DNA of 25,675 nucleotides from a virus (Duplodnaviria > Caudoviricetes), in the IMG/VR virus record IMGVR_UViG_3300016484_000593, positions 1 through 25,675 of that record; one strand, written 5' to 3'. A program made the position numbers and the translations under genes. Within the stretch, counting starts at the first letter, position 1. Each line of letters starts with the position of its first letter. Below the pieces are notes generated by a model. That model worked only from the letters and a program-made list of their open reading frames with translations, ran no database searches and was not told the origin of the DNA. This document shows positions 753 to 25,556 of the stretch, in pieces.

Positions 753-2859
753 CGACATCTTCGCGGCGCAGGCCGAAGCCTTCTACCAGAAGATCTTGCT
801 GGCACACATGGCCCCGCCACTGGCAATGTCTGCGTCGGGCTGGGCCGACCGGTTCCGCCACATCGCTAAAGGCCCCGAGCGCGGCCCGTGGCGCACGTCT
901 CGCACGCCGTACCTGGCCGAGCCCATGGCCTGCACAGACCCAGAAAGCCCGGTGCAGCGCGTATCGATGATGTTTGCCACGCAGCTCGGCAAATCCGAAG
1001 TCATATACAACGCGGTTCTCAAGCGCATTCACTTGCAGCCCATGGACATGATGATGGTCCAGCCCACGCTGCAAGACGGCAAGGACCACAGCCGCGAGCG
1101 CTTCATGCCGACCGTGCGCGCCACACCTGCCGTGCGTGACCGCATGCCGAAGGCGACTTCGCGCGACGAAACCAACACCTGGCAAACCAAGCAGCTGCCC
1201 GGCGGAGCAACCCTGTACTTCGCCGGTGCCAACAGCGCCCGCAGCCTGGCGTCGAAGCCATTGCCGTTTGCTGCATGCGACGAAATCGACGGCTATCCGC
1301 ATGACGTCGACGGCGAGGGCGACCCCCTCGGCCTGGTGTGGGAGCGTATGTCCAACTTCGGACAGCGAAAGCTCATCCTGGCCAGCACGCCAACCACCAA
1401 AGGATTCAGCCGCATCGAAGAAGAATATCTCGCCGCCGATCGCTGCCGCTACCACGTGCCATGCCTGCACTGCAACACGCTGCAGACGCTGGAGTGGGGT
1501 GCGGGCGCGGCCTGGGGCATCAAGTGGCTGAAAACCCCCAGCGGTGAAGCCAGGCCAGAAACCGCCGTCTATGTCTGCCGACACTGCGGCAGCACCCTGC
1601 AGAACCACCAGAAAACCGACATGCTGGCTGCCGGTCTGTGGGTGCCAGAAATGCCGGGTGCGCAGAATGGATTGGCGCGCAGCTTCCACCTGAACAAGCT
1701 CTACAGCCCCGTCGGTTGGAAAAGCTGGTCCATGCTGGTGGGAGACTGGGAAAGGGCGCAAGAGACAGCCCGCGCGGGCGACAGCACCAAGCTCAAGACT
1801 TTCGTCAACACGTCGCTGGCGGAGACATGGGAAGACGCAGGCGACCGCGCCGACGAGCACGCCCTGCGCAAACGCGCCGCCGACATCCCCCTGCGCCAGG
1901 TGCACTGGGGCCTGTTCGTCGCCACAATGGGCGTCGACGTGCAAGGCGATCGCCTGGAGGCCTACACCTGGGCCTGGGGCCGCGATCTCGAACGCCAGCT
2001 TGTCGATCGCCAGGTCATCTACGGCGACCCAGCCATCCCAGAAACCGAAGCCGGCAGCCCTTGGAAAGCGCTCACCGACCTGCGCCGCGCCCCGCTCAGC
2101 CACGCCAGCGGCCGCACCGTGCCACTCATGGCCGTGGCCATCGACTCCGGCGGCCACCACACCCAGGCCGTCTACACCTACGTCCGCAGCCACCAGCACG
2201 CCCACGTCATCGCCGTCAAAGGCAGCAGCCAGCCCGGCCGCGCGATTCTCGGCAAACCCACCGAGCAGGATGTCAACTGGCGCGGCCAGAAAATGCGGCG
2301 TGGCGTCAAGCTGTGGCCCGTCGGCACCGACACCGCCAAGGCCGAAATCTACGGCCGCTTCCGCGTCGCCGATGTCGGTCCCGGCTACGTGCACCTCAGC
2401 AAACATCTGCCCGCCGACGTGTTCGAGCAACTCACCGCCGAACGCCTCGTCACCCGCTACGTCAAAGGCCGCCCGCGCCTCGAATGGGTCAAGCCCGCCG
2501 GCAAACGCAACGAAGCCCTCGACTGCGCCGTCTACGCCCTCGTCGCCGCCCATTACCTCGGCATGGAACGCTGGCGCGCCCACGAATGGGCTAAGTGGGA
2601 AAGCCTCGCCCAATCGCGCGACCTGTTCGACGGCCCAGGCACCGCCCAACCAGCGGCAACCTCATCGGCCGCCACCGACCAAGCCGCCACCGTCGACGCG
2701 GCAACCGCCACCCCGCAATCTAGCAACCACGGCCCCGTATCCAGTAACCCCGACGCTGAAGGCAGCAACAACGCCACCCCCACAACCCGCCCGCCGCTGC
2801 CCGCCCACGCCCGCCCGCAACCCCGCAGCACCGCCCGCCGCCTGCAGCGCGACTGGTAG
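739..2859 (+). CDS. Terminase large subunit, lambda gpA family
   Basis: GPWRTSRTPY, Walker A ATQLGKSE, Walker B ACDEIDGYP, STPT, CLHC/CRHC zinc pair, GVDVQ, IDSGG and RNEALDC motifs. ATG 739 is preferred over TTG 724. Confidence 0.97.
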   Translation: MGARDDIFAAQAEAFYQKILLAHMAPPLAMSASGWADRFRHIAKGPERGPWRTSRTPYLAEPMACTDPESPVQRVSMMFATQLGKSEVIYNAVLKRIHLQPMDMMMVQPTLQDGKDHSRERFMPTVRATPAVRDRMPKATSRDETNTWQTKQLPGGATLYFAGANSARSLASKPLPFAACDEIDGYPHDVDGEGDPLGLVWERMSNFGQRKLILASTPTTKGFSRIEEEYLAADRCRYHVPCLHCNTLQTLEWGAGAAWGIKWLKTPSGEARPETAVYVCRHCGSTLQNHQKTDMLAAGLWVPEMPGAQNGLARSFHLNKLYSPVGWKSWSMLVGDWERAQETARAGDSTKLKTFVNTSLAETWEDAGDRADEHALRKRAADIPLRQVHWGLFVATMGVDVQGDRLEAYTWAWGRDLERQLVDRQVIYGDPAIPETEAGSPWKALTDLRRAPLSHASGRTVPLMAVAIDSGGHHTQAVYTYVRSHQHAHVIAVKGSSQPGRAILGKPTEQDVNWRGQKMRRGVKLWPVGTDTAKAEIYGRFRVADVGPGYVHLSKHLPADVFEQLTAERLVTRYVKGRPRLEWVKPAGKRNEALDCAVYALVAAHYLGMERWRAHEWAKWESLAQSRDLFDGPGTAQPAATSSAATDQAATVDAATATPQSSNHGPVSSNPDAEGSNNATPTTRPPLPAHARPQPRSTARRLQRDW

Positions 2860-2868
2860 CCAACCGCC

Positions 2869-3264
2869 ATGACCCACACCGCAACCCCAACCGCAGCCGC
2901 CCCCGTCGTGCCCGCCGCTCCCACCGCGTCCATCGCCACAGCGCCGCCCCCCGCGCCGCCCGCCGACGACACCGACGACCTCGTCGCCCGCATGCTCGAC
3001 TACCTCGTCAAGCTCAAACCCGACCTGGCAAAGCAACGCAAGGCCCTGGCCGACGACATGCGCAAAGAATTCGGCGGCCAACGCTGGTACGTCGCCAGCC
3101 GCCAGCCCACCGAACGCCAAGAACGCATCGCCGCCATCCTCGCCACTTTCAACGGCCGCAACGCCAGCGAAGTCGCCCGAACACTCAAAATCAGCCGCGC
3201 CACGGTGTACCGCGTGCTCAAGCAGCCGGGGCGGTTTGCGCGGGCGGAAGGGGGCAAAAAGTGA
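2869..3264 (+). CDS. Mor/C-family transcription activator
   Basis: FGGQRWYV followed by FNGRNASEVARTLKISRATVYRVLK (C-terminal HTH), typical of Mu Mor/C homologues. Confidence 0.85.
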   Translation: MTHTATPTAAAPVVPAAPTASIATAPPPAPPADDTDDLVARMLDYLVKLKPDLAKQRKALADDMRKEFGGQRWYVASRQPTERQERIAAILATFNGRNASEVARTLKISRATVYRVLKQPGRFARAEGGKK

Positions 3265-3425
3265 AGGCCATGCACTGGCTGCAATCCCGCCTGAAAGCCT
3301 TGCGAGCGCGCCGCAAACTGGGCGCCTGCTTCTGGTATTTGAAATCGGAAGTCAAAACCAAGCGGCGCGACGTACTCAGCTACCACTGCCGACGCTGCGG
3401 CCTTCCGCATGACAACCATTTTTAA
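3261..3425 (+). CDS. Small hypothetical protein, 54 aa, with C...HCRRCG possible zinc ligands (not in the ORF track)
   Basis: GTG overlaps the Mor stop (GTGA). Reads MKAMHWLQSRLKALRARRKLGACFWYLKSEVKTKRRDVLSYHCRRCGLPHDNHF; the TAA lies inside the core TTTTAAC of attC-like site 1. Confidence 0.55.
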   Translation: MKAMHWLQSRLKALRARRKLGACFWYLKSEVKTKRRDVLSYHCRRCGLPHDNHF

Positions 3426-3506
3426 CGCGGAGTTAACCGGCGCCCACGGTGGCACCCACGAAACGCGAGGACGCCGACAGGCGTCCGGTTGAACGCACTG
3501 TTAGGC
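3420..3506 (-). mobile_element. attC-like site 1 (87 bp)
   Basis: Minus strand: R'' GCCTAAC, 5 nt, L'' GTTCAACC (extra C), GG[A]CGCC ... GGCGCC, L' GGTTAAC, 5 nt, R' GTTAAAA. Canonical attC layout with two extrahelical bases. Confidence 0.88.
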
Positions 3507-3520
3507 CCTGGTGGCCGGAG

Positions 3521-3724
3521 ATGAAACCGATGAACTGCCCGAATGTGTATTGGGTAACTGAACTCGTGAAGCTGACGCAGACGGTGGCGAGTTCGCACCC
3601 CACGCTGGGGTGGACGCCAGCCCGCCCGATTGGCTGGCAGGGGTTCGCCTTGCGCAGCCGCTTCCGTGCCGCGTGGCTGGTGTTCACCGGCAAAGCTGAC
3701 GCGGTGCGGTGGTTTGAGGCCTAA
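3521..3724 (+). CDS. Cassette A hypothetical phage protein (WxPARP...AAWLVFTGKADAVxW type)
   Basis: ORF fills the space between attC-like sites 1 and 2. GGAG at 3517-3520 (start 3521 or 3530); stop TAA inside GCCTAAC. Confidence 0.75.
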   Translation: MKPMNCPNVYWVTELVKLTQTVASSHPTLGWTPARPIGWQGFALRSRFRAAWLVFTGKADAVRWFEA

Positions 3725-3816
3725 CGTTGGAGCTAACACGGAGCCAGCGGCGGGAAGGACTGGACAGGAGCAAAGGCCGCGACCCGTTGGCGCTCGTGTT
3801 GAGCGACGTGTTATGC
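3719..3816 (-). mobile_element. attC-like site 2 (98 bp)
   Basis: Minus strand: R'' GCATAAC, 5 nt, L'' GCTCAACA ... L' TGTTAGC, 6 nt, R' GTTAGGC, with an imperfect inner stem. Confidence 0.85.
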
Positions 3817-3850
3817 GGCTGGTGAACGAAGGCACGAAAGGGCGAGAGCG

Positions 3851-4183
3851 ATGGAATGGCCGAAGAAACGGACGGTAGGACGATGCGGCGATATGGGGCC
3901 TGCAGGCGACCACCAGATGGTCCTGCATTTGCAGGACGACGGCGATGTAGTGCTGGCTGTTACCGGCACGGGCATGGGCAGCCAAGTTCACACCAGCACG
4001 GTGGAGTTTTGCGCTGGCGGCGCTGGCGGCGGCCGTTCGATGCGAACCCGCGACGCCCTGATTGCGCTGATGGTGGCAATGGAGGCCGACAACGCCGAAA
4101 GCCCGCGCGCTGCATGGCCGCCCGCGCGCCACGAGCCGCCTAACGCAAAGCTAAACGGCGGCCCGCCAGGGCCGTCCGTTTGA
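3851..4183 (+). CDS. Cassette B hypothetical protein (VEFC..GGGGRS..T..AL..L..A...DN type)
   Basis: ORF fills the space between sites 2 and 3; its last codons (PNAKLNGGPPGPSV) read into attC-like site 3. Confidence 0.75.
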   Translation: MEWPKKRTVGRCGDMGPAGDHQMVLHLQDDGDVVLAVTGTGMGSQVHTSTVEFCAGGAGGGRSMRTRDALIALMVAMEADNAESPRAAWPPARHEPPNAKLNGGPPGPSV

Positions 4184-4197
4184 GCGACCTGTTAGCC
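4138..4197 (-). mobile_element. attC-like site 3 (60 bp)
   Basis: Minus strand: GGCTAAC AGGTC GCT[C]AAAC GG[A]CGGCCC TGGC GGGCCG CC GTTTAGC TTTGC GTTAGGC. Same size and layout as the classic short 59/60-base elements. Confidence 0.92.
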
Positions 4198-4231
4198 GGC
4201 CAGGTGAAAACCGGCACAACCTAGGAAAGCA

Positions 4232-4459
4232 ATGGAAACTTTCGTGCAACCGAAGATCACCGGATACCGCCAACTGAACGAGGCGGAAGCTGCGCTGATG
4301 AACGAGATCAAGGCCGAGGGCGTGAAGCTGGGCGAGCTGGTGGCGAAGCTGCGCGCAACCGATGGCCTTGACCAGCGGTGGGTGAGCATCGGCGCCACCG
4401 ACCTGCAGACCGGCCTGATGGCGCTGACGCGCGGCGTGGCCCAGCCCACGACGTTCTAG
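4232..4459 (+). CDS. acb2: Acb2-like anti-CBASS cyclic-oligonucleotide sponge protein (cassette C, gene 1)
   Basis: KITGYRQLNEAEAALMNEIK...RWVSIGATDLQTGLMALTRGVAQPTTF matches the Acb2 pattern as I recall it (KIKGYRDLS.EEI..MN..K...RW.AIG.TD.QTG.MA..RA.AQP..F). RBS AGGA at 4223. Confidence 0.85.
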   Translation: METFVQPKITGYRQLNEAEAALMNEIKAEGVKLGELVAKLRATDGLDQRWVSIGATDLQTGLMALTRGVAQPTTF

Positions 4460-4461
4460 CC

Positions 4462-4728
4462 ATGAGCCGAGCCGACGCATTGCGCCCGATGCACCGCAGC
4501 GTGCTGGAGAAGCAGGCACGCGCCCGCGGCTACCGGCCGCGCCCGGTGAACATGAACACCGTGGCGCTGCCTGCCGAGGCGCGCGAGTGCATCGAGAGCA
4601 TTGCGCTCGGCATCTTCACCGACATGGTGAACAGCGGCGCCACGCTGCAGGAGACGCTGGCGGCCGTGTACCTGAGCGGCAGCGAGAACGCACTGGCGGC
4701 GTACCGCGAGCCGGCTAACACAATTTGA
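4462..4728 (+). CDS. Cassette C gene 2, hypothetical 88-aa protein
   Basis: ATG 2 nt after the acb2-like stop; MSRADALRPMHR...AVYLSGSENALAAYREPANTI. The last codons cross the terminal GGCTAAC core. Confidence 0.7.
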   Translation: MSRADALRPMHRSVLEKQARARGYRPRPVNMNTVALPAEARECIESIALGIFTDMVNSGATLQETLAAVYLSGSENALAAYREPANTI

Positions 4729-4749
4729 ACGACACCCATGTCGCATAAC
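4713..4749 (-). mobile_element. Putative attI-like site closing the cassette array
   Basis: Minus strand: GTTATGC GACATGGGTGTCGTTCAAATTGT GTTAGCC. A core site with a second GTT-type box 30 nt upstream and no attC-type partner arm. Confidence 0.5.
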
Positions 4750-4800
4750 CTGGCGCCTTCCCACCACCCAACCCATTGATTCCAAAGCCACCCAAGCCAT

Positions 4801-4833
4801 TTATCACGACACCGCACCAGTTATCACGACACC
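4801..4833. repeat. Direct repeat TTATCACGACACC x2 (20-bp period); ACGACACC also at 4729-4736
   Basis: Seen at 4801-4813 and 4821-4833. Confidence 0.85.
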
Positions 4834-4861
4834 CACGCGCCCGCCACACCGCCCACCCCAA

Positions 4862-4892
4862 AGTCTCACCCTTGCCTACCCCTGAGACACCC
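4862..4892 (+). promoter_or_regulatory. Putative late-promoter/activator box 1 (GTCTCA-N14-TGAGAC)
   Basis: 31-bp element 30/31 identical to 11155-11185; both end 19 nt before a structural gene start. Confidence 0.7.
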
Positions 4893-4911
4893 TAACCGGT
4901 AGTCTCAGCCC

Positions 4912-5136
4912 ATGGCGTACACCCAGACCGACCTCGACAGCCTAGACGCAGCCATTGCCTCGGGCCACCGCCGCGTGTACGTCGAAGGCCGCCAAGTCGA
5001 ATACGCCACCACCGAAGAACTCCTGAAGGCCAGAAGCCATGTAAGCGAGCAACTCAAAGCAGGCGCAGCGTCCGCATCTGGCGCCACCCGCCGCGGCGTC
5101 TTCCGCTTCCGCAACACCACCGTGCGCGGCGACTGA
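4912..5136 (+). CDS. Head-to-tail joining protein, gpW-like
   Basis: MAYTQTDLDSLDAAIASGHRRV...GRQVEY...EL..AR, directly before a lambda-type portal. Confidence 0.85.
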   Translation: MAYTQTDLDSLDAAIASGHRRVYVEGRQVEYATTEELLKARSHVSEQLKAGAASASGATRRGVFRFRNTTVRGD

Positions 5137-5155
5137 AAGCGGGCAGGGCGCACCC

Positions 5156-6631
5156 ATGAACCTCATCGACCGCGTCGTCGGCTACCTCGACCCTGCCGCC
5201 GGCATCCGCCGCGCCTACCAGCGCCGCCAGCTCCAGCGCGCCTATGAGGCCGCCAGTCCGCGCGACACCTGGCGCCCGCGCCGGCAAAACGCCAGCGCCA
5301 ATGCCGACCACGCGGCAGACGCCGCCACCCTGCGCGCCAAAGCCCGCACCCTGGTGCAAAACGTTCCCTACGTGCGCGCCGGCCTCGAGGGCCTCGTCAG
5401 CTACACCATCGGCACCGGCATCGTCAGCCGCGCAACAGACGCCCGCACCGCCGCCGCATTCAACGCCGCTTTCGCCGCCTGGTCCAAAGTGTGCGACGCC
5501 GACGGCCGGCTGGACTGGCCCGGCATCCAGGCCGCCGCCTACCGCGCCATGGAGCAAGACGGCGAAGTCCTCATCCGCCTGCGCCCGCGCCGCCCGTCCG
5601 ATGGCCTGCCCATCCCGCTGCAACTCCAGATGCTGGAAATCGACTGGCTCGACACCAGCCGCAGCGGCGTCATCGAAGGCGAGAACACCATCAACGGCAT
5701 CGGCTATGACGCCCTCGGCCGCCCCGCCGCCTACTGGCTGCACGACACCCACCCCGGCGACATGGGCCTGGCCGCCGCATTCACGCGCCGCACATCCAGC
5801 GTGCGCATACCCGCCCGCAATATCGTCCACCTCTACGCGCCCGACCGGCCTGGGCAGGGCAGGGGCTTCACCCGCCTGGCGCCCATCATCGCTCGCGCCC
5901 GCGACAACCAGCTCTACGAAGACGCCGAACTAGCCCGCAAGAACCTCGAGAGCCGCCTCGGCATCGTCGCCAGCGGCGACGTGTCCACCCTGGGCGACGG
6001 CCCACCGTCTGGCGCCACCACCAGCACCGCCACCAGCGGCGACCTGGGCGAGCTCGCTGGCGGCGGCATCCTGCAAGTGCCCGCCGGCCTGAACTTGACC
6101 GCCATCGAGCCCAAGGCCATGCCCGGCTACGTGGACACGCTCAAGTTCAACCTGCAGCTCATCGCCAGCGGCCTGGGCGTTCCCTACGAACTCATGACCG
6201 GCGACGTGAGCCAGACCAACTTCAGCAGCGCCCGCGTCCGCCGCCTCGACTTCAAGAAAGCCGTCGAAGCCACCCAATGGCTCACCGTCATCCCCCGCCT
6301 GATTGAACCCGTTCTCACCGCCGCCCAAGACGCCGCCGTCCTCGCCGGCATCATCCCCCGCGCCGCCCACCAGTTCGACCACAGCTGCCCGAAATGGGAC
6401 TACGTCAACCCACAACAAGACGCCGAAAGCGACCGCCTCGAAATCGCCAGCGGCCTCAGCACCCTGAGCGAAAAACTCCGCTCCCGCGGCTACAACCCCC
6501 AGGCCGTGTTTGACGAAATCAAGAGCGACATGCAGGCCCTCGAAAAAGCCGGCGTGCTCGACCTGCTGCTGGCATTGCAAGGCAAGACCAAACCGGGCGC
6601 GGCGCCTGCCAACACGGGGGGCGCAGCATGA
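5156..6631 (+). CDS. Portal protein, lambda family
   Basis: AYEAAS, LRAKARTLVQN, DGEVLIR, RPGQGRG, GVPYELMTGDVSQTNFSSAR and WDYVNPQQD motifs. Confidence 0.96.
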   Translation: MNLIDRVVGYLDPAAGIRRAYQRRQLQRAYEAASPRDTWRPRRQNASANADHAADAATLRAKARTLVQNVPYVRAGLEGLVSYTIGTGIVSRATDARTAAAFNAAFAAWSKVCDADGRLDWPGIQAAAYRAMEQDGEVLIRLRPRRPSDGLPIPLQLQMLEIDWLDTSRSGVIEGENTINGIGYDALGRPAAYWLHDTHPGDMGLAAAFTRRTSSVRIPARNIVHLYAPDRPGQGRGFTRLAPIIARARDNQLYEDAELARKNLESRLGIVASGDVSTLGDGPPSGATTSTATSGDLGELAGGGILQVPAGLNLTAIEPKAMPGYVDTLKFNLQLIASGLGVPYELMTGDVSQTNFSSARVRRLDFKKAVEATQWLTVIPRLIEPVLTAAQDAAVLAGIIPRAAHQFDHSCPKWDYVNPQQDAESDRLEIASGLSTLSEKLRSRGYNPQAVFDEIKSDMQALEKAGVLDLLLALQGKTKPGAAPANTGGAA

Positions 6632-7119
6632 CCCGCTCCAGCATCCTTTACACCCGCACCACCCGCTGGCAGCCCGCCGACGCGCTCATCCGCGCGTGGG
6701 ACGCCGGCCACATGAGCCACGCGGGCATCCGTCTTGGCGATTGGGTCATTGATGCAGCCGTCTGGGGTGGCGTCGCCCGCACTTATCTGCCGGACTGGAT
6801 GCACGGCCGCGAAATCGTGGCCGATCTGCCCGTGCTGTCGACCAGCCAAGGCACCCAAGAACAAGCGGAATCAGAGTTGTTCGACCGCATCGGCCAACGC
6901 TACGACCTCGCCGAGTTGGCCGGGTTCGTTTTGTTGCGCGACCTCGGCGACCCGGACCGGCCCGTTTGCAGCCGCCTGGGGTATGACTTTCTCGCCACCG
7001 CGTGTGGCTTGCGCATTCCTGGCCGTCAGGGCCGCATTGGCCCGCGCCTGCTGCACACCGCCCACCACAGTTTCAACCTCGGCCGGTCGGCCGTTTTCAC
7101 CCCCGGCCAGTCGGCCTGA
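6628..7119 (+). CDS. Permuted papain-like (YiiX/YebB-type NlpC/P60) amidase/peptidase
   Basis: SHAGI histidine motif, IG..YD and VCSRL cysteine motif in His-before-Cys order; ATGA overlap with the portal stop. Confidence 0.65.
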   Translation: MTRSSILYTRTTRWQPADALIRAWDAGHMSHAGIRLGDWVIDAAVWGGVARTYLPDWMHGREIVADLPVLSTSQGTQEQAESELFDRIGQRYDLAELAGFVLLRDLGDPDRPVCSRLGYDFLATACGLRIPGRQGRIGPRLLHTAHHSFNLGRSAVFTPGQSA

Positions 7120-7137
7120 TCCAAAAGGACCACCACC

Positions 7138-7728
7138 ATGTTTACCGACGCATCTCGCAATCTCATGATCGCAGCCGAGGGCACCACGCACCTCAGCCTG
7201 CACTCGGCCTACAGCACCACCGGTGCCAACGAGTTGACCGGCGGCTCGCCCGCCTATGCCCGCAAAGCGGTGACCTACGGTGCCGCCAGCACTGGCAGCA
7301 AGGCGCAGAGCGCCAACGTCACATTCGACGTGCCGGCCGCCGCCGCTGTGCAGTTCGTCGGCCGCTGGACGGCCATCACTGGGGGCACGTTCCTGGGCAT
7401 GACCTCGTGCGGCGGATCGGAAATGGAGTTCGCGGCCGATACCACCGCGGACACCATCACCGCAGCTGCCCACGGCCTGGCCGACACCGACAAGATCGTG
7501 TTTGTTGGCGACACCCCGCCGGCGGGCCTGATCGAGGGCACCGTCTACTACGTGCGCGACGCGACCACCAACACGTTCAAGGTCGCGGCCACGTCCGGCG
7601 GCGTCGCCATCGACCTCACGGGCCTGCCCGGTAAAAAGTGCGTCGTGTCCAAGATCGTGCCGGAAAGCTACGGCGCGCAAGGCACCTACCAGGTCAACAG
7701 CGGCGCGTCGCTGGCCGTCGACGCATAA
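7138..7728 (+). CDS. Virion structural protein, fibre/decoration-like
   Basis: LSLHSA...NELTGGSPAYARKAVT...VTFDVPA type fold with an inserted ITAAAHGL..TDKIVF...GTVYYVR...NTFKVAAT beta domain; RBS AAGGA. Confidence 0.6.
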   Translation: MFTDASRNLMIAAEGTTHLSLHSAYSTTGANELTGGSPAYARKAVTYGAASTGSKAQSANVTFDVPAAAAVQFVGRWTAITGGTFLGMTSCGGSEMEFAADTTADTITAAAHGLADTDKIVFVGDTPPAGLIEGTVYYVRDATTNTFKVAATSGGVAIDLTGLPGKKCVVSKIVPESYGAQGTYQVNSGASLAVDA

Positions 7729-7742
7729 CGGCAGGCTGACCC

Positions 7743-8552
7743 GTGGCTGATACCCACATCAACCGCGTCAAGCAGGCTGTCTCCGGCACGCCGGGTACGG
7801 GCTCGATCACGCTTGCCGCTGCACTTTCTGGCTTTCGCGCTTTGGGTGCAAGCCAGAACGGTCAGACGTTCCCATTCCTGTTCCTTGATGGCACAGCGTG
7901 GGAAATCGCCACTGGCTGCACCTACACGCACTCAGGCACAACACTTTCGCGCGGCACTTTGGAGGATTCGAGCACCGGCTCAAGAATAAGTCTGAGCAGC
8001 GCGGCGGTTTGCATGGTGCTGCCTACGGCGGCTTTCGGCAATCGCTTTGAGTTGGGTCGAGTTCCGACCCTGGCAATTGTTGATGAGTCTTCATCAAACG
8101 ATCCTGGCGGTCCTGCGGTTGTCTACAGCAGCTCCACGTTTCGGATGATGGCATGGGTTGTGAACAAGTGGAAGTCTTTTCCAATGTTGTTTGCGACGAA
8201 CACTTGGGAGGGCGCTCAACGCGGATCTATTACGACGCTGACGCCGAGCGGGGCTATCACAATAGATGCGAATTCGGGCAACTTCTACACCCTAACACCG
8301 AATGCCAATTTTGGTATTGCAAACCCGACCAATTTGGCCGCTGGCCAATCTTTCGTAATTGAGATTACGCAGCCAGCCAGCGGTGGACCGCGGGTTATCA
8401 GCAGCTGGGGCTCATACTTCCGATATGCCGGGGGTCTTTCCACGCTTCCAGCGCTCAGTACGGCAGCGAATGCGGTTGACGTTATAAGCTGCATCGCCTG
8501 GACATCGACGCGCATCCAGATTCTCGGCATTGCCAAGGACATCAAAGCATGA
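7743..8552 (+). CDS. Fibre-like structural protein
   Basis: N-terminal RVKQ...GTGSITL...WEIATG.YT..GT.L.R..SS.G and C-terminal NPTNL.AGQS..I.I.Q...G.R...WGS...LSTAANAVDVI, both common in phage fibre/baseplate proteins. Confidence 0.6.
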   Translation: MADTHINRVKQAVSGTPGTGSITLAAALSGFRALGASQNGQTFPFLFLDGTAWEIATGCTYTHSGTTLSRGTLEDSSTGSRISLSSAAVCMVLPTAAFGNRFELGRVPTLAIVDESSSNDPGGPAVVYSSSTFRMMAWVVNKWKSFPMLFATNTWEGAQRGSITTLTPSGAITIDANSGNFYTLTPNANFGIANPTNLAAGQSFVIEITQPASGGPRVISSWGSYFRYAGGLSTLPALSTAANAVDVISCIAWTSTRIQILGIAKDIKA

Positions 8553-9073
8553 TTCCGGGCGCGCCACTCCCCTGGGTGTCGACCGCCGCAAGTACGTCAT
8601 CTGTCAATGTTGCGCTCGCAGCTAATGGAGCATCAGCAGCGGCGTCTAGTCAGCTCGGCGCAAATTTTCCGGCATCGTCCGCGATTAACGGTTCTCGGAC
8701 GGCGGCCGGCTGGGGTGCAGGGTCTGGTGGTTGGGCATGCGGTACGCCCAATACGTGGCCCGATTGGTTGGAGGTGACGTTTGCAGCATCTAGCACGATC
8801 CAAACAATCAACGTTATCGGGATACCGGATAATTTCGGAGACGCCCCAGAACCCACGCTAAGCATGGTGTCTACGGAATTCCCGCTAACAGATTTTGTCG
8901 TCGAGTATTGGGACGGGTCGGCATGGGCCACTGTTCCGGGCGGGAATGTGACCGGAAATGATAAAGTATGGCGGCAGTTCACATTTAGCCCGATAACGAC
9001 GACAAAGATACGGGCGTATATTACAGCCGGATATGCGTACTCGATTATTTGCGAAATTGAGGCGTGGACATGA
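8549..9073 (+). CDS. Discoidin (F5/8 type C)-like carbohydrate-binding protein
   Basis: NVALAANGASAAASS...SAING...W...PDWLEVTF...DFVVEYWDGSAW...F.PITTTKIR...I.EIEAW. Confidence 0.8.
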   Translation: MIPGAPLPWVSTAASTSSVNVALAANGASAAASSQLGANFPASSAINGSRTAAGWGAGSGGWACGTPNTWPDWLEVTFAASSTIQTINVIGIPDNFGDAPEPTLSMVSTEFPLTDFVVEYWDGSAWATVPGGNVTGNDKVWRQFTFSPITTTKIRAYITAGYAYSIICEIEAWT

Positions 9074-9486
9074 GAGTCATCACAAAATACGTATCCGCTT
9101 CTGGTGCGCAAATATCCGCCGACTGGTGGGCGGCCGATGACGGCACGCGCTACTTAGTCCGCGCACTGTCGGATGAGCAGCGGCAGGCGCTGGGCATCAC
9201 AACCACGACTGAGCAGATTCCAGATCCACCCGCGCCAAGCTTGGAGCAGGTCAAAGCGGCGCGCATCGCGGCGATCAACTTCGAGTGCCGCAGTCGCATC
9301 ACGGCAACTTGGCCGATTGAAAAGCAACTGAGTGCGCTCGCTGGTGTATATGGCCCGACCGAATTGCAGGCGATGACGGATTGGGTAGATGCCCATATCG
9401 CGGCCAGCAACACGGCATCGGATGCCATCGATGCGGCAACAACCACAGCATCAGTGGAGGCGGTCACGGTAGCGTGGCCGGTGTAA
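9070..9486 (+). CDS. Fibre-assembly/DUF4376-like protein
   Basis: SLEQVKAARIAAIN...IDAATT...V.AV...WP ending; ATGA overlap. Confidence 0.6.
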   Translation: MRVITKYVSASGAQISADWWAADDGTRYLVRALSDEQRQALGITTTTEQIPDPPAPSLEQVKAARIAAINFECRSRITATWPIEKQLSALAGVYGPTELQAMTDWVDAHIAASNTASDAIDAATTTASVEAVTVAWPV

Positions 9487-9488
9487 GC

Positions 9489-9692
9489 ATGGCGATCAAT
9501 CACAAGCGCAGCGCTGCTGTAATCGCAGCCAAGGCGGCGGACAAAGCTGAACGTCAAGCTGTGAAAGCGCTGCAAACGGATCTGCAGGCCGTTGTTGATG
9601 GCATCGACGGCACGACCACGCTGGCACAGCTTCGCAACCATGTCAAAGACCTGGCGCGCATCTCGCGGCGCCTGCTGCGCTTGACGGCGTAA
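9489..9692 (+). CDS. Hypothetical helical protein, 67 aa
   Basis: ATG 2 nt after the previous stop; fills the gap to the next gene. Confidence 0.55.
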   Translation: MAINHKRSAAVIAAKAADKAERQAVKALQTDLQAVVDGIDGTTTLAQLRNHVKDLARISRRLLRLTA

Positions 9693-9698
9693 GCGGAT

Positions 9699-10781
9699 AT
9701 GTGGGGCGGCGCACCATGGGGTGATCTGGCGTGGGGCGATGCCCCTGCCAGCGCTGCGCAGTCCGCGGCCGGAACGGTAGCGGCACGAAGCGGCGCCACC
9801 AGCGCGGCGGCCGGTGCCAAAGCATCGCAAGCCTCGGCAGCGTCAAACGCCGCCCCACGATCCGGTAGCGTTGGCAGCAAGGCCGCAGCATCGTCCACCT
9901 CATCGACCGTCAGCGCCAGGTCGTCTGTCACCGGGCAAGCGGCGGCCCTGCCGCAAGGCGTGGCGTCGTCACGCGTGGGTGCCAGGTGCTCAGTCGCTGG
10001 GGGTAAGTCATCCAGTAGCAACGCCTCGACCGCGGTCGGCGTCGCGGCATCGTGCACGGGCGCCAAACTGGCGAGCGCTACCTGGGCTTCCCGTGCCGGT
10101 GTGCGCGGAGGCGCCCCGGGTCGGGTCGCATCCATCCCGCAAGGCATCGCATCGTCGCGCGTCGGCGCTCTTTGCTCAGTCGCCGGCGGCAAAACGGCCG
10201 CCGCCTCTACCGCCAGCACGGCCGGCGCTGCCGCGTCGTGTGTTGGCGGTAAAGCGTCCAGCAGCCTCTGGGCCGCGCACGTTGCAGCTTTGGCCAGCGC
10301 TCCCGGCCAGGCCGCGTCGATACCGCAAGGTTTGGCATCCTCACGCGCTGGCGCGCGGGCCTCGGTCGTCGGCAGCAAGGGCACGGCGGCTGTTGCGTCT
10401 GCATCGGCGGCAACTGCCAGCGCAACGATCGGCGGGAAGCAAGCCGGCAACACATGGTCCACCCGCGCCGGCACGCGAGCCAGCGCGCCCGGCCAAGCTG
10501 CGGCCGTCCCGCAAGGCGTGGCGTCGTCCCGCGTCGGCGCCCGGTGCTCGGTCGCTGGCGGCAAATCGGCCGGCGCCTTCGCGTCTACCCGATGCGCAAG
10601 CACAGCAGCGTCCAGTGGCGCCAAGCAGGCCAGCAGCGCGTGGACATCCCGCTCCGGCGCGCGGTCGGCCGCTCCCGGCCGCATCCCATCCGCCGTGCAA
10701 TTCGTGCCCGGCAATCCCGACGTGTGGCTCATCCCCTACCGCCAGCGCGTCGTCACCATCAACCCGCACCGCAGGGCATGA
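9699..10781 (+). CDS. Ala/Ser/Gly-rich repeat protein, probably fibrous and structural
   Basis: N-terminal MWGGAPWGDLAWGD; PQG.ASSR.GA recurs every 62 aa. Confidence 0.7.
   Translation: MWGGAPWGDLAWGDAPASAAQSAAGTVAARSGATSAAAGAKASQASAASNAAPRSGSVGSKAAASSTSSTVSARSSVTGQAAALPQGVASSRVGARCSVAGGKSSSSNASTAVGVAASCTGAKLASATWASRAGVRGGAPGRVASIPQGIASSRVGALCSVAGGKTAAASTASTAGAAASCVGGKASSSLWAAHVAALASAPGQAASIPQGLASSRAGARASVVGSKGTAAVASASAATASATIGGKQAGNTWSTRAGTRASAPGQAAAVPQGVASSRVGARCSVAGGKSAGAFASTRCASTAASSGAKQASSAWTSRSGARSAAPGRIPSAVQFVPGNPDVWLIPYRQRVVTINPHRRA
9930..10690 (+). repeat. 186-bp degenerate tandem repeat, ~4 copies (bounds approximate)
   Basis: CCGCAAGG at 9951, 10137, 10323 and 10509, an exact 186-bp spacing. 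Confidence 0.9.
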
Positions 10782-11137
10782 GCATGCAGCAACAACTCGT
10801 CAAGCGCTCCGGCGAAACGGTCCTTTGCGACTTCAACTGCCAGCTGCTGCTGGGCCCGTCAGAGTCCATCGAGGGCGCCATCCAGCTATCCGCAGAGGGC
10901 CCCGGCGCGGCTCTCAGCTTTGGCGATGCACAAATCAACAGCGAAGCCGTCACCTATGAATTCAATCGTCAGGTGCCGGCCGGCAAGGTGATCCAGGTGC
11001 TCATCGGTGGCGGCTCCATTCCATCCGGCGCCGCACAAGCCGCATACACCGTGCGCGCCCGCTTTGGCACCACCAACGCCGGCGAAGTGCGGGAAGCCAC
11101 CGCTCGGCTGCTCATCATCGACGAGCCATTCTGCTGA
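10778..11137 (+). CDS. Small beta-rich structural protein (fibre adaptor-like)
   Basis: K..GE....DF....L...ESI...V.I.GG......YTV.....T..G pattern; ATGA overlap. Confidence 0.55.
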   Translation: MSMQQQLVKRSGETVLCDFNCQLLLGPSESIEGAIQLSAEGPGAALSFGDAQINSEAVTYEFNRQVPAGKVIQVLIGGGSIPSGAAQAAYTVRARFGTTNAGEVREATARLLIIDEPFC

Positions 11138-11154: not shown

Positions 11155-11185
11155 AGTCTCACCCCTGCCTACCCCTGAGACACCC
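11155..11185 (+). promoter_or_regulatory. Putative late-promoter/activator box 2 (GTCTCA-N14-TGAGAC)
   Basis: Near-identical copy of 4862-4892, upstream of the protease-capsid gene. Confidence 0.7.
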
Positions 11186-11204: not shown

Positions 11205-13295
11205 ATGCCTGAAATCAGCAGCAGCAACCAAGCCGCCAGCCACACCCGCAGCACCGTCGACCTGCCCGCGCAATTGCGCGAGGCGTCTTTCGTGCCCGGT
11301 TCGTGGAACGCTGAAACCGCATCCTGCACGCTCGTCTGGACCACCGGCGCCCAGCGCCGCGCCTATGACTGGATGTCAGACACCCTGTACGACGAAGAGC
11401 TGCAGGTCGACGCCGACGCCGTCGACATGACTCGCTTCGAAGCCGGCACCGTGCAGGTGCTGGACGGCCACCGCGCATACGGTGGCACCGGCGCCATCCT
11501 CGGCATCGCCGCCCGCGGCTGGGTGGCAGACGGCCAAGGCCATGCCGACATCCGCCTGCGCACCAGCACGCCGCAACTCGCCGCCGTCGCTGCCGATGTC
11601 GGCGCCGGCCTCATCCGCGCCGTCAGCTTCGGCTACTCGGTCCAGCGCTACGAAATCACACCCGCGCACATGCGCACCGACGGCGGCACCGTGCCCCTGT
11701 ACCGCGCCACGCGCTGGACCCCGCAAGAAATCTCGTTCGTGGCCGTCCCGGCCGATCCCCACGCGGGCACCCGCTCGCAGCAAACCGCGCAGGCCAGCAG
11801 CACCGCCAGCCCCTGCGAACTCGTCCGGGCCATCGCCCAACCCCAAGCAACCCTGGAGCACCCCACCATGCCCGCAAACCTGAACCAAGCCGCTGACGAC
11901 CAAACCCGCCAGCAAGCCGCCGCAACGGCCGCCCAGTCCGACACGCAAAGCGTCGCCGTCGCCGTGCTCGACGCCACCGCCTTGGCCGCTGAAGCCGCCA
12001 CCCGCGCCGCCGACATCACCGAGCTCTGCGCCCGCCACGGTGTCGCCGATCTGGCCGCTGGCCTGATCCGCAAGCAATCCACCGTCGACCAGGCCCGCGC
12101 CGCCATCCTGGAGCAAATCGCCGTGCGCGACGCTGCCCAAGGTGGCCACACCAACGTGCGCAGCGTCCGCACCGAGCGCGACGAAACCGAAACCAAGCTG
12201 CGCGGCATGGAAGGCGCCGTCATGCACCGCATGGACAGCCGTGCGCAGCTCGACGACAACGCCCGCCAGTTCCGGGGCCTGAGCCTGCTGGAAATGGGCC
12301 GCGAATACTTGGAGTCGCGCGGCGTCTCCACGCGCGGCATGGACCGCATGCGCCTGGCCTCTGAAATGCTGCACTTCCGCAGCCCCGGCATGCACACCAC
12401 CAGCGACTTTTCAACGCTGATGTCCAACGTGGCCAACAAGCGCCTGCGCGGTGCCTACGAAGAAAACCCCGGCACCTACGCGCTGTGGGCCCGTCGCGCG
12501 CCGAATGCGTCCGACTTCAAGAACATCACCGTCGCGCAAATCTCCGCCATGCCGGACCTGCAGCGCGTGAACGAGCACGGTGAATTCAAGTACGGCGCCA
12601 TGAAAGACGGTGGCGAGGTTTACGCCGTGTTCACCAGCGGCACCATCGTGTCGCTGTCGCGTCAGTCCATCGTCAACGACGACCTGCGCAGCTTCGACCG
12701 CATGGTCGAGGGCTACGGCCGCGCCGCCCGCCGGTTCGAAAACCGCACCGTCTACAGCATCCTGACCGCCAACGCGGCCATGGCCGACGGCGTGGCGCTG
12801 TTCTCCGCCGCATCGGGTGCCCGCCTCCAGGCCAACATTCAGACGGGCGCTGGCTCCGCGCTGCAGCTGTCCAGCCTTGCCGCCGGGCGCACCAGCATGC
12901 GCAAGATGAAAGGCCTGCAAAACGAGGAACTGAACCTGGCGCCGGCCTACCTCATCGTGCCGTCGGACCTGGAGCAAACCGCCTACCAGTTGACAAGCGC
13001 CAACTATGTGCCGGCCACGCCAGCGGCCACCAACGAGTTCCGCAGCGGTGGCCGCACGGCCGTCATGCCAATCGTTGAACCGGTGCTGGACGGCACGTCT
13101 GCCACGCAGTGGTATCTGGCCGCGTCCAGTGGCCAGGTCGACACCGTCGAGTACTGCTACCTCGACGGCGCCGAAGGCCCGGTCATCGAAAGCGAGCCCG
13201 GCTTCGAGGTCGATGGCGTCTCCTACAAGTGCCGCCTCGACTTCGGCGCCAAGGCCATCGACCACCGGGGCCTGCACCGCTCCGCCGGCGCCTAA
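11205..13295 (+). CDS. Fused prohead protease / scaffold / major capsid protein
   Basis: Protease motifs VLDGH, IRAVSFGY and WTPQEISFVAVPAD; Ala-rich linker; capsid motifs HTTSDF, DFK, EHGEFK, SRQSIVNDDL and LDFGAKAIDHRGL. Confidence 0.93.
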   Translation: MPEISSSNQAASHTRSTVDLPAQLREASFVPGSWNAETASCTLVWTTGAQRRAYDWMSDTLYDEELQVDADAVDMTRFEAGTVQVLDGHRAYGGTGAILGIAARGWVADGQGHADIRLRTSTPQLAAVAADVGAGLIRAVSFGYSVQRYEITPAHMRTDGGTVPLYRATRWTPQEISFVAVPADPHAGTRSQQTAQASSTASPCELVRAIAQPQATLEHPTMPANLNQAADDQTRQQAAATAAQSDTQSVAVAVLDATALAAEAATRAADITELCARHGVADLAAGLIRKQSTVDQARAAILEQIAVRDAAQGGHTNVRSVRTERDETETKLRGMEGAVMHRMDSRAQLDDNARQFRGLSLLEMGREYLESRGVSTRGMDRMRLASEMLHFRSPGMHTTSDFSTLMSNVANKRLRGAYEENPGTYALWARRAPNASDFKNITVAQISAMPDLQRVNEHGEFKYGAMKDGGEVYAVFTSGTIVSLSRQSIVNDDLRSFDRMVEGYGRAARRFENRTVYSILTANAAMADGVALFSAASGARLQANIQTGAGSALQLSSLAAGRTSMRKMKGLQNEELNLAPAYLIVPSDLEQTAYQLTSANYVPATPAATNEFRSGGRTAVMPIVEPVLDGTSATQWYLAASSGQVDTVEYCYLDGAEGPVIESEPGFEVDGVSYKCRLDFGAKAIDHRGLHRSAGA

Positions 13296-23957: not shown

Positions 23958-24172
23958 GCCAAACAGCCACCCGCTACCCGCGCCTCATCGTCGTGGCCGC
24001 CGTGCTGTGCGCCATGCCCAATAGCCGCGCCACCGAAGCCACAGACCCCCACCCGCCGCCCTTCGTCGCCCGCGTGTCCTGCGGCACCCTGCAGGGCTCC
24101 GGCGTGGTGGCTTTCACCGTCGGCGGCTGGGTCTTCAGCGTGCCGATCGTCTGCCAATCCTCCTCCACTTGA
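23951..24172 (+). CDS. Small hypothetical protein with signal-like N-terminus
   Basis: Overlaps the lysozyme stop; hydrophobic LIVVAAVLCA. Confidence 0.45.
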   Translation: MLSQTATRYPRLIVVAAVLCAMPNSRATEATDPHPPPFVARVSCGTLQGSGVVAFTVGGWVFSVPIVCQSSST

Positions 24173-24195
24173 TCCGCCTGACCACCGCCACCACC

Positions 24196-24930
24196 ATGCC
24201 CTACGCCCTCGGAAAATCCCCCGCCCAACGCGACCCGCGCAACCTGCTAATGGGCGCGCTCTTCACCAAGGCGCCCGCGCCGCCCGTTGCCTACGACGTC
24301 GACGACAACCGCCCCACCGTGCCCACGCCGATGTTTGCCAACGACGAACTGGGCTGCTGCGTCATCAGCGGCCGCGCCCACCAAACCCTGAGATTCGAGC
24401 GCCAGGAGCAGGGCAGGGCGCTGACCATTTCCGACGAAGACATCAAGGCCGAATACTTCCGCCAAACCGGCGGCGTCGATTCGGGCCTGGTCGTGCTCGA
24501 CAGTCTCAAGCAGTGGCGCAAGCAAGGCTGGCGAGCCGCCGGCCAAAACTACAAGATCCGCGCCTTCGCCGAAATCCGCCCGAGCAAAACCATGGAGCTC
24601 AAACGCGCCATCTGCGCCAACCTGGGCGTCGGCATCGGCCTGGAGTTGCCCCTCAGCGCGCAACGCCAGCTCGAGCGCGGCTTGCCCTGGACCACCACAC
24701 GCGGCGACAAAGCCGCCCCCGGCTCATGGGGCGGCCACTATGTCTACGTCGTCGGCTACACCCAGGCCGGACCCGTCTGCATCACTTGGGGCGCCCGCCA
24801 GCCCATGAGCTGGCGATTCTTCGGCCGCTACTGCTCCGAGGCCTACGCCATTTTCGACGCTCCCGACCTCAGCCAGCTACCGCCAGGCATCGACGGCGCC
24901 GCCGTCGAGCAATTCCTCCAGCAGCACTGA
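24196..24930 (+). CDS. Papain-like (C1-type) cysteine peptidase homologue
   Basis: NDELGCC (Cys), WGGHYVYVVGY (His) and ITWG in papain order. Confidence 0.65.
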   Translation: MPYALGKSPAQRDPRNLLMGALFTKAPAPPVAYDVDDNRPTVPTPMFANDELGCCVISGRAHQTLRFERQEQGRALTISDEDIKAEYFRQTGGVDSGLVVLDSLKQWRKQGWRAAGQNYKIRAFAEIRPSKTMELKRAICANLGVGIGLELPLSAQRQLERGLPWTTTRGDKAAPGSWGGHYVYVVGYTQAGPVCITWGARQPMSWRFFGRYCSEAYAIFDAPDLSQLPPGIDGAAVEQFLQQH

Positions 24931-24962
24931 TCAGCACTGAGCCCCGCGCCGCGCCCGCCACC

Positions 24963-25337
24963 ATGCCCGCCCGCCTGCCCTTCACCTGCCGCGTGCCCAT
25001 CTATGGCGGCACCCTGCGCCTGTTCACCACCCGCGCCGACTTCGTCACCTGGTGCCAATCCATCGGCCAACCCGCCGCCGCTGAAACCCCCTGCGCCGGC
25101 CGATCATTCAGCACCGCCGACAAGCTCGGCGCCATCACCTACACCATCGCCTGGCTCGACGGCCGCCTCACCACCTTGTCACACGAAACCAACCATACCG
25201 CCCTGCGCATCCTCAAACGCGCCGGCATGGCCCCCACCGACAGCGACGGTGAGGCCCTGTGCCACCTGCAGGCCGAACTGATGATGCTCTGCGGCGCCGA
25301 TGAATACGACCGCCCGCTCACCCAGCTGCGCGCCTGA
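24963..25337 (+). CDS. Small HExxH zinc-metallopeptidase-like protein
   Basis: TTLSHETNH...GEALCHL; ATG 24963. Confidence 0.6.
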   Translation: MPARLPFTCRVPIYGGTLRLFTTRADFVTWCQSIGQPAAAETPCAGRSFSTADKLGAITYTIAWLDGRLTTLSHETNHTALRILKRAGMAPTDSDGEALCHLQAELMMLCGADEYDRPLTQLRA

Positions 25338-25358
25338 CGCAACAACCCCCGCACACCC

Positions 25359-25556
25359 ATGAGCAACGGCGACCTGTGGGAAATCCCCGGCGGCCACCGC
25401 GCCATCGAAGTCGACGGCTCCACCCCCGACCGCCTCGCCCTGCGCATCATCCAGCCCGGCGAATGGCTCCAAGGCCGCCAAATCGTCGCCCGCAACCTCT
25501 GCACCAGGTTGCCAATGCGGTATTACCGGCAGGCGGACCCGCCCAAGCCGGTGTAA
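25359..25556 (+). CDS. Hypothetical protein, 65 aa
   Basis: Same strand and codon style as its neighbours. Confidence 0.5.
   Translation: MSNGDLWEIPGGHRAIEVDGSTPDRLALRIIQPGEWLQGRQIVARNLCTRLPMRYYRQADPPKPV

Follow-up and report, generated by a model that had tools for sequence, protein, structure and literature searches.

A late-region array of three reversed attC cassettes with a phage-type attI and a decayed intI stub in a tailed phage

The late region of a tailed phage contains an array of three attC cassettes, inserted between a mor-like activator gene and a gpW-like adaptor gene, whose cargo genes are antisense to the attC sites and which ends at a phage-type attI that precedes the decayed 5' stub of an intI gene. 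The array is an integron variant and not a new kind of machine. The attC sites, their polarity, the exchange of cassettes 2 and 3 among phages with borders at AA|C, the homology of attI and stub, and complete phage integrons of the same layout are all present in the data, and we consider it probable that the array as a whole is an integrase-less copy of a phage integron, its three reversed cassettes moved in trans by an integrase (IntI) of a phage clade.

The window, i.e. the whole stretch of DNA analysed, is the 25,675-base virus contig IMGVR_UViG_3300016484_000593 and comprises the late half of a tailed phage. Family searches of its open reading frames (ORFs) identified a terminase, a mor-like activator, a gpW-like adaptor, a lambda-type portal and lysis genes, and the ORF list places ORFs for head and tail between these late genes. 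The array had been described as embedded in a prophage; this is unproven because no host DNA or early region is seen in the 25.7 kb of the virus contig. The run matching the window best, X1, is a freshwater metagenome and probably the source run. RNA-labelled runs gave small shares only, and one of them, X3, is probably DNA. A betaproteobacterial host is a guess from the GC content and from the sister group of related integrases. The protease-capsid gene (11205-13295) lies about 4.5 kb from the portal gene, with tail-like and decoration-like genes between them (6628-11137). This interval includes a low-GC stretch (7800-9600), and an ORF of 360 amino acids, rich in Ala and Ser and with internal repeats, is found at 9699-10781. 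Accessory ORFs (phrog_19005, phrog_1365 and an ORF of 65 amino acids) are located 3' of the lysis genes at 24169-25556; inspected by eye, the early regions of L226 and L239, two phages with intI, appear to contain relatives of the 65-aa ORF.

Sequence analysis identified the three palindromes as genuine attC sites located on the minus strand. A rule scan with the pattern R''-5-L''(extra base)-...-L'-5/6-R' gave exactly three sites across the window, each in minus-strand orientation: attC1 (3420-3506, 87 nt), attC2 (3719-3816, 98 nt) and attC3 (4138-4197, 60 nt). None of 100 dinucleotide shuffles of the window contained a site. A covariance model was built from 32 of 60 sites adjoining intI in bacterial genomes only (91% of cells paired). 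It scored attC1, attC2 and attC3 at 38.4, 43.7 and 51.7 bits, with rough E values of 2e-7 to 1e-10; the next-best match in the window reached 13.3 bits and the plus strand at the three sites at most 9.7 bits. The scan reproduced every coordinate of the palindromes that the earlier note had described, with R and L boxes, spacers and an extrahelical base in L''. The extrahelical base falls in L'' only when the sites are read on the minus strand, which is what the AA|C crossovers claimed there imply. The covariance-model check proposed in that note was thus carried out with a model of 32 bacterial sites, and scores of 38 to 52 bits bear out the identification as attC, as do the cassette borders reproduced in other phages.

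Free folding gave a significant hairpin for attC3, the best of the three (z -3.9), and values no better than shuffles for attC1 and attC2 (z -0.2 to -1.8). The R' box of attC1 is also poor, pairing at 4 of 7 positions, and attC1 and attC2 may therefore be weaker substrates. With three attC in 0.8 kb and no IntI in the 25.7 kb of the window, which lacks the rest of the genome, the array corresponds to a CALIN (at least two clustered attC with no intI nearby). An Rfam scan of 3200-5000 gave a single match, by chance.

Because attC1-3 are on the minus strand, every cargo gene, all being on the plus strand, is antisense to the usual cassette layout, in which the gene is on the top strand of attC and the attC follows it. 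It is an established rule that the bottom strand of attC recombines (10.1101/2022.09.11.507474, available text), and the recombining strand is therefore the coding strand of the cargo genes. Reversed polarity is general among viral attC. A degenerate attC pattern, with 39 of 64 parts scanned, gave 125 viral loci with 159 distinct sites. A ribosome binding site and start codon follow attC on the antisense side at 93 of these 159 sites and on the canonical side at 3. The counts beside viral intI are 13 antisense and 0 canonical (22 sites), and beside bacterial intI 1 antisense and 10 canonical (60 sites). A noisier test based on stop codons gave 111 vs 55 for viral contigs and 13 vs 43 for bacterial intI, and did not separate the sides beside viral intI (11 vs 9). 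At loci retrieved through the cargo genes, duplicate loci included, the model matches were antisense to the gene in 40/40 and 49/50 cases. The published TJE1 array, the model case of Qi et al. (PMC9892861), is canonical on the same covariance model, its three attC being on the strand of the genes. The literature, with subscription journals poorly covered, yielded no description of reversed cassettes and none of a phage branch of IntI. The position of the strand relative to replication affects excision (PMC5371416, available text); it may be conjectured that excision could be raised when bottom and coding strand coincide, provided that the genes run with replication.

The cassettes are almost certainly mobile attC cassettes. 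Cassette 1 (3426-3724, 299 bp) consists of attC1 and a gene at 3521-3724 (phrog_21988, unknown function), cassette 2 (3725-4143, 419 bp) of attC2 and an ORF at 3851-4183 that reads into attC3 and has no family, and cassette 3 (4144-4718, 575 bp) contains two genes and adjoins attI. Cassette 2 is identical at 416 of 419 bases to a cassette in phage L286. The identity is 40/40 just within each crossover and 20/40 and 25/40 beyond, and the neighbours in L286 are other cassettes; attC and the gene that follows it therefore move as a unit. Run X1 has cassette 2 as a separate unitig (3717-4146) at depth 24.4, flanked both by the window sequence (8.1 and 9.0) and by L286-type sequence (14.9 on the right). 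Cassette 2 is therefore shared by two co-occurring phages.

Cassette 3 is 92.7% identical over 4170-4719 to L081/L082, where the L082 copy is in a phage called Mu-like from its gene content, with the portal gene on one side and minor head genes on the other. At L082, the attC preceding this cassette is a different one (12/40 bases). Twenty-eight loci matched the second gene of cassette 3. The match ends at 4719-4722 in 16 of them, all at least 85% identical and with 11 different flanks by our own count; 10 more distant loci stop earlier, one ends with its contig and one continues into attI. Records of runs X2, X7 and X8 also stop at 4719. The cassette 1 gene has a 78% homolog in L294, preceded there by a separate attC and with its end at the same core, and a homolog in L292 without attC. 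Hence, the predicted borders recur at AA|C in other phages for cassettes 2 and 3, and those of cassette 1 are matched by the 78% homolog only. Differences between near-identical phages involve whole cassettes delimited by the cores: L085 equals L084 plus one cassette of 377 bp, and L417 has four cassettes more than L082 and one more than L422. This agrees with the gain and shuffling of cassettes by phages that had been suggested. For this phage, the contigs of four runs, which are of a kind that cannot show absence, revealed neither excision nor circles nor junctions in which a cassette is skipped.

One Mu-like phage (L082/L084 in record G002, L085 in G003) carries two Acb2 cassettes at separate sites, after portal and after mor. 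Each Acb2 array of L082, L084 and L085 ends at a GAT core without attI, and G002, 98% complete, is without IntI. GAT instead of GTT cores are also found within the arrays of L417 (1295-1353 and 2177-2235) and L422 (1220-1278 and 1705-1763). They reflect either a crossover shifted by one base or a tolerance of GWT by the integrase. The idea that the L082 cassette ends are two independent secondary sites is weakened, as L417 has the same right flank and GAT cores inside its arrays.

The fourth core, at 4713-4719, had been described as lone; its position stands, but it is the crossover of an attI. By homology of position and layout, the sequence at 4713-4753 on the minus strand is identified as a phage-type attI and the plus-strand segment at 4760-4845 as a decayed phage intI 5' stub. 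In phage integrons with intI, a conserved site just before intI terminates the array; it contains two TAAC boxes, which are separated by 31 nt in 14 of the 19 integrons examined, and window positions 4713-4749 have the same layout with the second TAAC box 30 nt further on. Locus L443 has the same gene end as the window, followed by attI and then a full intI. Profiles of attI gave their top window match at this site, although weakly (E 6e-4 with 19 loci, and 1e-3; 0.78 without L320), and one low-complexity control match scored equally high. The stub is 77% identical over 84 nt to the intI start of L320 (E 2e-9 against the window); it has no start codon at the homologous place and no catalytic domain. 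Among the features of a complete integron, an attI heading the array is present and the intI beside it is reduced to this stub. Two direct repeats, TTATCACGACAC, are found within the stub at 4801-4836; similar boxes occur within the 5' part of the coding sequence of phage intI genes, and IntI may bind them as additional sites.

The attI is a 37-nt node (4717-4753) in the assembly graph of run X1. Cassette 3 leads into it, as does another record with its junction at the core; the window path and a record of 2,164 nt lead out of it. The node, its entries and its exits all have a depth of 8.8-10.0 (8.8 for the 2,164-nt record; 9.0 and 10.0 for the window path). The 2,164-nt record appears to have an intact IntI start like that of L323, as read by hand from its listed differences. 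The sister copy and the window are identical in the 37-nt attI core, and the adjoining stub has 15 base differences and 4 gaps in 101. Because the sister attI-intI record occurs at equal depth in X1, equal depth being the only link, a second, complete integron probably exists in the missing half of the same phage. The L286 phage was also considered as holder of the sister attI and intI, with no match in G001. Exact 18-mers and 20-mers of attI had no matches in viral and metagenome contigs.

The window contains no catalytic domain of an integrase. A tblastn search with 29 phage IntI proteins gave nothing at E<=0.01, in line with the earlier note, which saw no integrase there. Phage IntI scores 429 bits against TIGR02249 (cut-off 265). 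Relatives are encoded at 32 viral loci, and some viral attC arrays adjoin such an intI. A quick tree of 103 rows, with rows shorter than 280 aa, with stops or duplicated left out and 4 of 64 genome parts scanned, placed 22 of 24 viral IntI on one branch (SH-aLRT 94), nearly all viral rows having been recruited with one query, which favours a single clade. This branch adjoins betaproteobacterial chromosomal IntI. GenBank phages contain no IntI with more than 54% identity to the phage-clade query. An IntI-like gene with 44% identity to the query, annotated as xerD, is found at 4680-5678 of Virus Rctr41k (L413, KX853513), with no clear attC on the model.

An IntI is present in 1 of 30 portal relatives of at least 20 kb and in 1 of 5 near-complete ones. 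The complete 42-kb relative G005 (L310; portal 56%) has a full phage integron with two attC, attI and intI, which directly precedes the phage integrase gene (G005:C1:1397-3749). In four phages with cargo genes in common with the window, 3-7 attC and no IntI were found, and two of these phages are 98-100% complete. Since the complete G004 and the 98% complete G002 carry cassettes without IntI, a host or foreign IntI must sometimes serve, and supply of IntI in trans is a real state.

The insert lies between the mor-like late transcriptional activator (2869-3264, plus strand; PF08765 1.4e-10; phrog_532), which is the left flank outside the insert, and the gpW-like head-tail adaptor (4912-5136, plus strand; phrog_2545 3.5e-18) on the right. 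The gap between mor and gpW is 1,686 nt here, compared to at most 104 nt in 62 of the 74 portal relatives (of 80) with both genes, where the maximum is 1,213 nt. Both flanks are collinear with relatives, terL-mor on the left and gpW-portal on the right. No attC was found in this interval or elsewhere in the loci of the 80 portal relatives (719,470 bases), and the array is therefore an insertion peculiar to this phage; the comparison of related phages suggested earlier thus reveals no cassette turnover between mor and gpW. The distal end of the insert is an ORF of 54 amino acids (3261-3425, plus strand), for which no relatives were found and whose stop codon forms the R' core of attC1.

On the right flank, an inverted repeat GTCTCA-N14-TGAGAC is located at 4863-4888, within a 31-nt element (4862-4892). 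A second copy of the element with one difference is found at 11155-11185 (repeat at 11156); the two precede gpW and the protease-capsid gene, respectively. The repeat occurs in 56 of the 80 portal relatives and is probably a late (Mor-type) promoter element. The stub ends just before this conserved repeat, which places the block at the end of the terminase-mor unit. No sigma-70-like promoter was found in 2800-5200. Where the Pc promoter of integrons drives cassettes away from intI, the cargo genes here point towards attI, and the cassettes are presumably expressed by read-through from the terminase-mor operon.

One cargo gene in cassette 3 (4232-4459, plus strand) encodes a protein of 75 amino acids that is Acb2-like by family (PF24729 1.3e-16) and by four ligand residues, and is a predicted anti-immunity gene. 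It matches PDB 8h2j with E 1e-10, its Y12, K27, R49 and T56 corresponding to Y11, K26, R67 and T74 of Acb2. These four residues bind cyclic di- and trinucleotides in PaMx33 Acb2 (PMC10312549, available text). The second gene of cassette 3 encodes 88 amino acids (4462-4728, plus strand), reads through the attI core, has no family and no known function, and has 30 metagenome relatives. A protein atlas gave a best value of 0.81 for it, unnamed, and nothing usable for ORF 3851-4183. Family searches found no known function for the three cargo genes other than the Acb2-like one. Both ORF 3851-4183 and ORF 4462-4728 read through a crossover, as also seen in L082 and L286, and their last residues therefore change with the neighbouring cassette. 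In most of the 80 Acb2 loci, no attC precedes the gene, so the cargo consists of ordinary phage genes turned into cassettes. GenBank phages gave only three matches to the acb2 region.

According to the model that we favour, a block with attI and an intI start would have been copied from an early-region integron into the mor-gpW interval, where the stub then decayed. The source of IntI would be another integron that is still intact, probably one in the half of this phage genome that the contig lacks, or otherwise a co-infecting phage, and a host IntI could add attC x attC excision. The promoterless cassette genes would be read through from the terminase-mor operon towards attI, and consequently no Pc promoter would be needed and the newest cassette would be the last gene. 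Recombination would use the bottom strand, which is the coding strand. The Acb2-like protein, as far as its sequence goes, would bind cyclic nucleotide signals and blunt CBASS-type immunity.

The same cassettes could instead be served solely by a host chromosomal IntI, the phage having no integrase of its own. The complete G004 and the 98% complete G002, with 3-4 such attC and no IntI, fit this, as do the good scores of attC1-3 on the bacterial model and the finding that phage attC are IntI1 substrates (PMC9892861, available text). We nevertheless judge it rather unlikely, as the attI and stub are of the phage-integron type and run X1 contains, at matching depth, the sister copy whose intI start looks intact. 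Besides, attI sites favour their cognate integrase and non-cognate pairs of attI and IntI are generally inefficient (PMC8946536, available text, which also gives the names DR1 and DR2 in attI1). The earlier note left the source of IntI between the host and another part of the phage; attI, stub and sister copy favour the latter, and the integrase serving the array is more likely phage-encoded than host-encoded. An inert relic, a block copied once by illegitimate recombination that no longer recombines and is kept for its genes only, would account for the decayed stub, the poor R' of attC1, the weak folding of attC1 and attC2, the lack of an excised form in contigs and the lack of a relative with an array at the mor-gpW position. 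Such a relic is unlikely, however, as the attI core is identical in the sister copy while the adjoining stub has diverged, which suggests that the site has been kept, and as cassette 2 is only 3 bases off its copy in a co-occurring phage.

It is very unlikely that the order of the array is an assembly chimera at repeats common to co-occurring phages (cassette 2 and the attI node). The X1 graph does branch at 3717-4146 and 4717-4753 and no single record spans the array, but the depths pair up, with 8.1, 9.0 and 10.0 for the window path, 14.9 for the other path and 24.4 for the shared piece. Moreover, the 3 bases that set cassette 2 of the window apart from L286 also separate it from the majority copy, the sequence on either side of the array is collinear with that of relatives, and the attI node has a length of only 37 nt. 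The attC structure is of the bacterial type and published phage arrays can be captured host fragments (PMC9892861, available text), but a captured piece of a bacterial integron is scarcely credible given a gene polarity opposite to that of bacterial integrons and cargo genes with plain, non-cassette homologs in phages. The same holds for mere RNA terminator hairpins, since 2800-5200 contains one terminator-like stem, fewer than in shuffles. Both are contradicted by the polarity counts, the exchange of cassette 2 and the whole-cassette differences between phages. The preferred reading remains an integrase-less phage-integron copy served in trans by a phage-clade IntI.

Phage attC arrays have been published before. 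Qi et al. (2023) reported 17 CALINs and 3 complete integrons among 10,705 phages, and IntI1 recombined 5 of 6 phage attC tested (PMC9892861, available text). The window resembles these CALINs as an integrase-less attC cluster in a phage genome, and counter-defence cargo (methyltransferases) was proposed there. In the available text of that paper the complete integrons are host- or class-1-derived, and genes antisense to attC, a phage IntI branch, a phage-type attI and cassette exchange between phages are not described. What the window contributes is an exchange of single cassettes between phages that occur together, and an attI in the late region with a decayed integrase stub. Bacterial integrons (class 1 and betaproteobacterial chromosomal) share the attC anatomy, the G|TT crossover, an attI with an extra binding box, an intI facing away from the attC polarity and, in relatives, a TIGR02249 integrase. 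Unlike in these, the genes here are on the other strand with attC in front and run towards attI/intI, and intI is a stub. In inverted-integrase integrons of the Spirochaetota type, intI is likewise co-oriented with the cassette genes, but there intI is flipped relative to attC, whereas in the window the relation of intI to attC is regular and the genes are flipped (PMC13323075; 10.1101/2022.02.06.479319, available text). The GAT-core ends of L082, L084 and L085 without an att site resemble attG insertion and SALINs and fit the 5'-GWT-3' consensus (10.1101/2022.09.11.507474, available text), although GAT cores inside the arrays of L417 and L422 make this reading of the ends uncertain; the window array differs in having a real attI. 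Compared with the anti-CBASS sponge Acb2 (PMC10312549, available text; PDB 8h2j), with which it shares the sequence family and the four ligand-binding residues, the predicted window protein of 75 amino acids is without part of the PaMx33 middle segment and is carried as an attC cassette.

Bacterial integrons stock anti-phage defences (bioRxiv 10.1101/2024.07.02.601686 and.601719, available text). The same chemistry on the phage side would allow precise, homology-free swapping of small accessory genes, an anti-CBASS candidate included, which bears on the origin of accessory-gene mosaicism in phages. Reversed cassettes are a ready filter for new counter-defence genes. As borders, attI and candidate integrases are defined to the base, the claim is open to standard attC x attI assays. 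We incline slightly towards the wider view that temperate phages run an integron network of their own, in which IntI and attI form a phage branch, unrelated phages of one community trade reversed cassettes from a common pool, and outlying attI platforms such as that of the window allow a phage to load its late operon by means of an integrase encoded elsewhere in its genome. The cassettes of this pool would derive from ordinary phage genes, among them counter-defence genes such as Acb2, and if this is true, the network would be the phage-side mirror of the bacterial defence-cassette integrons.
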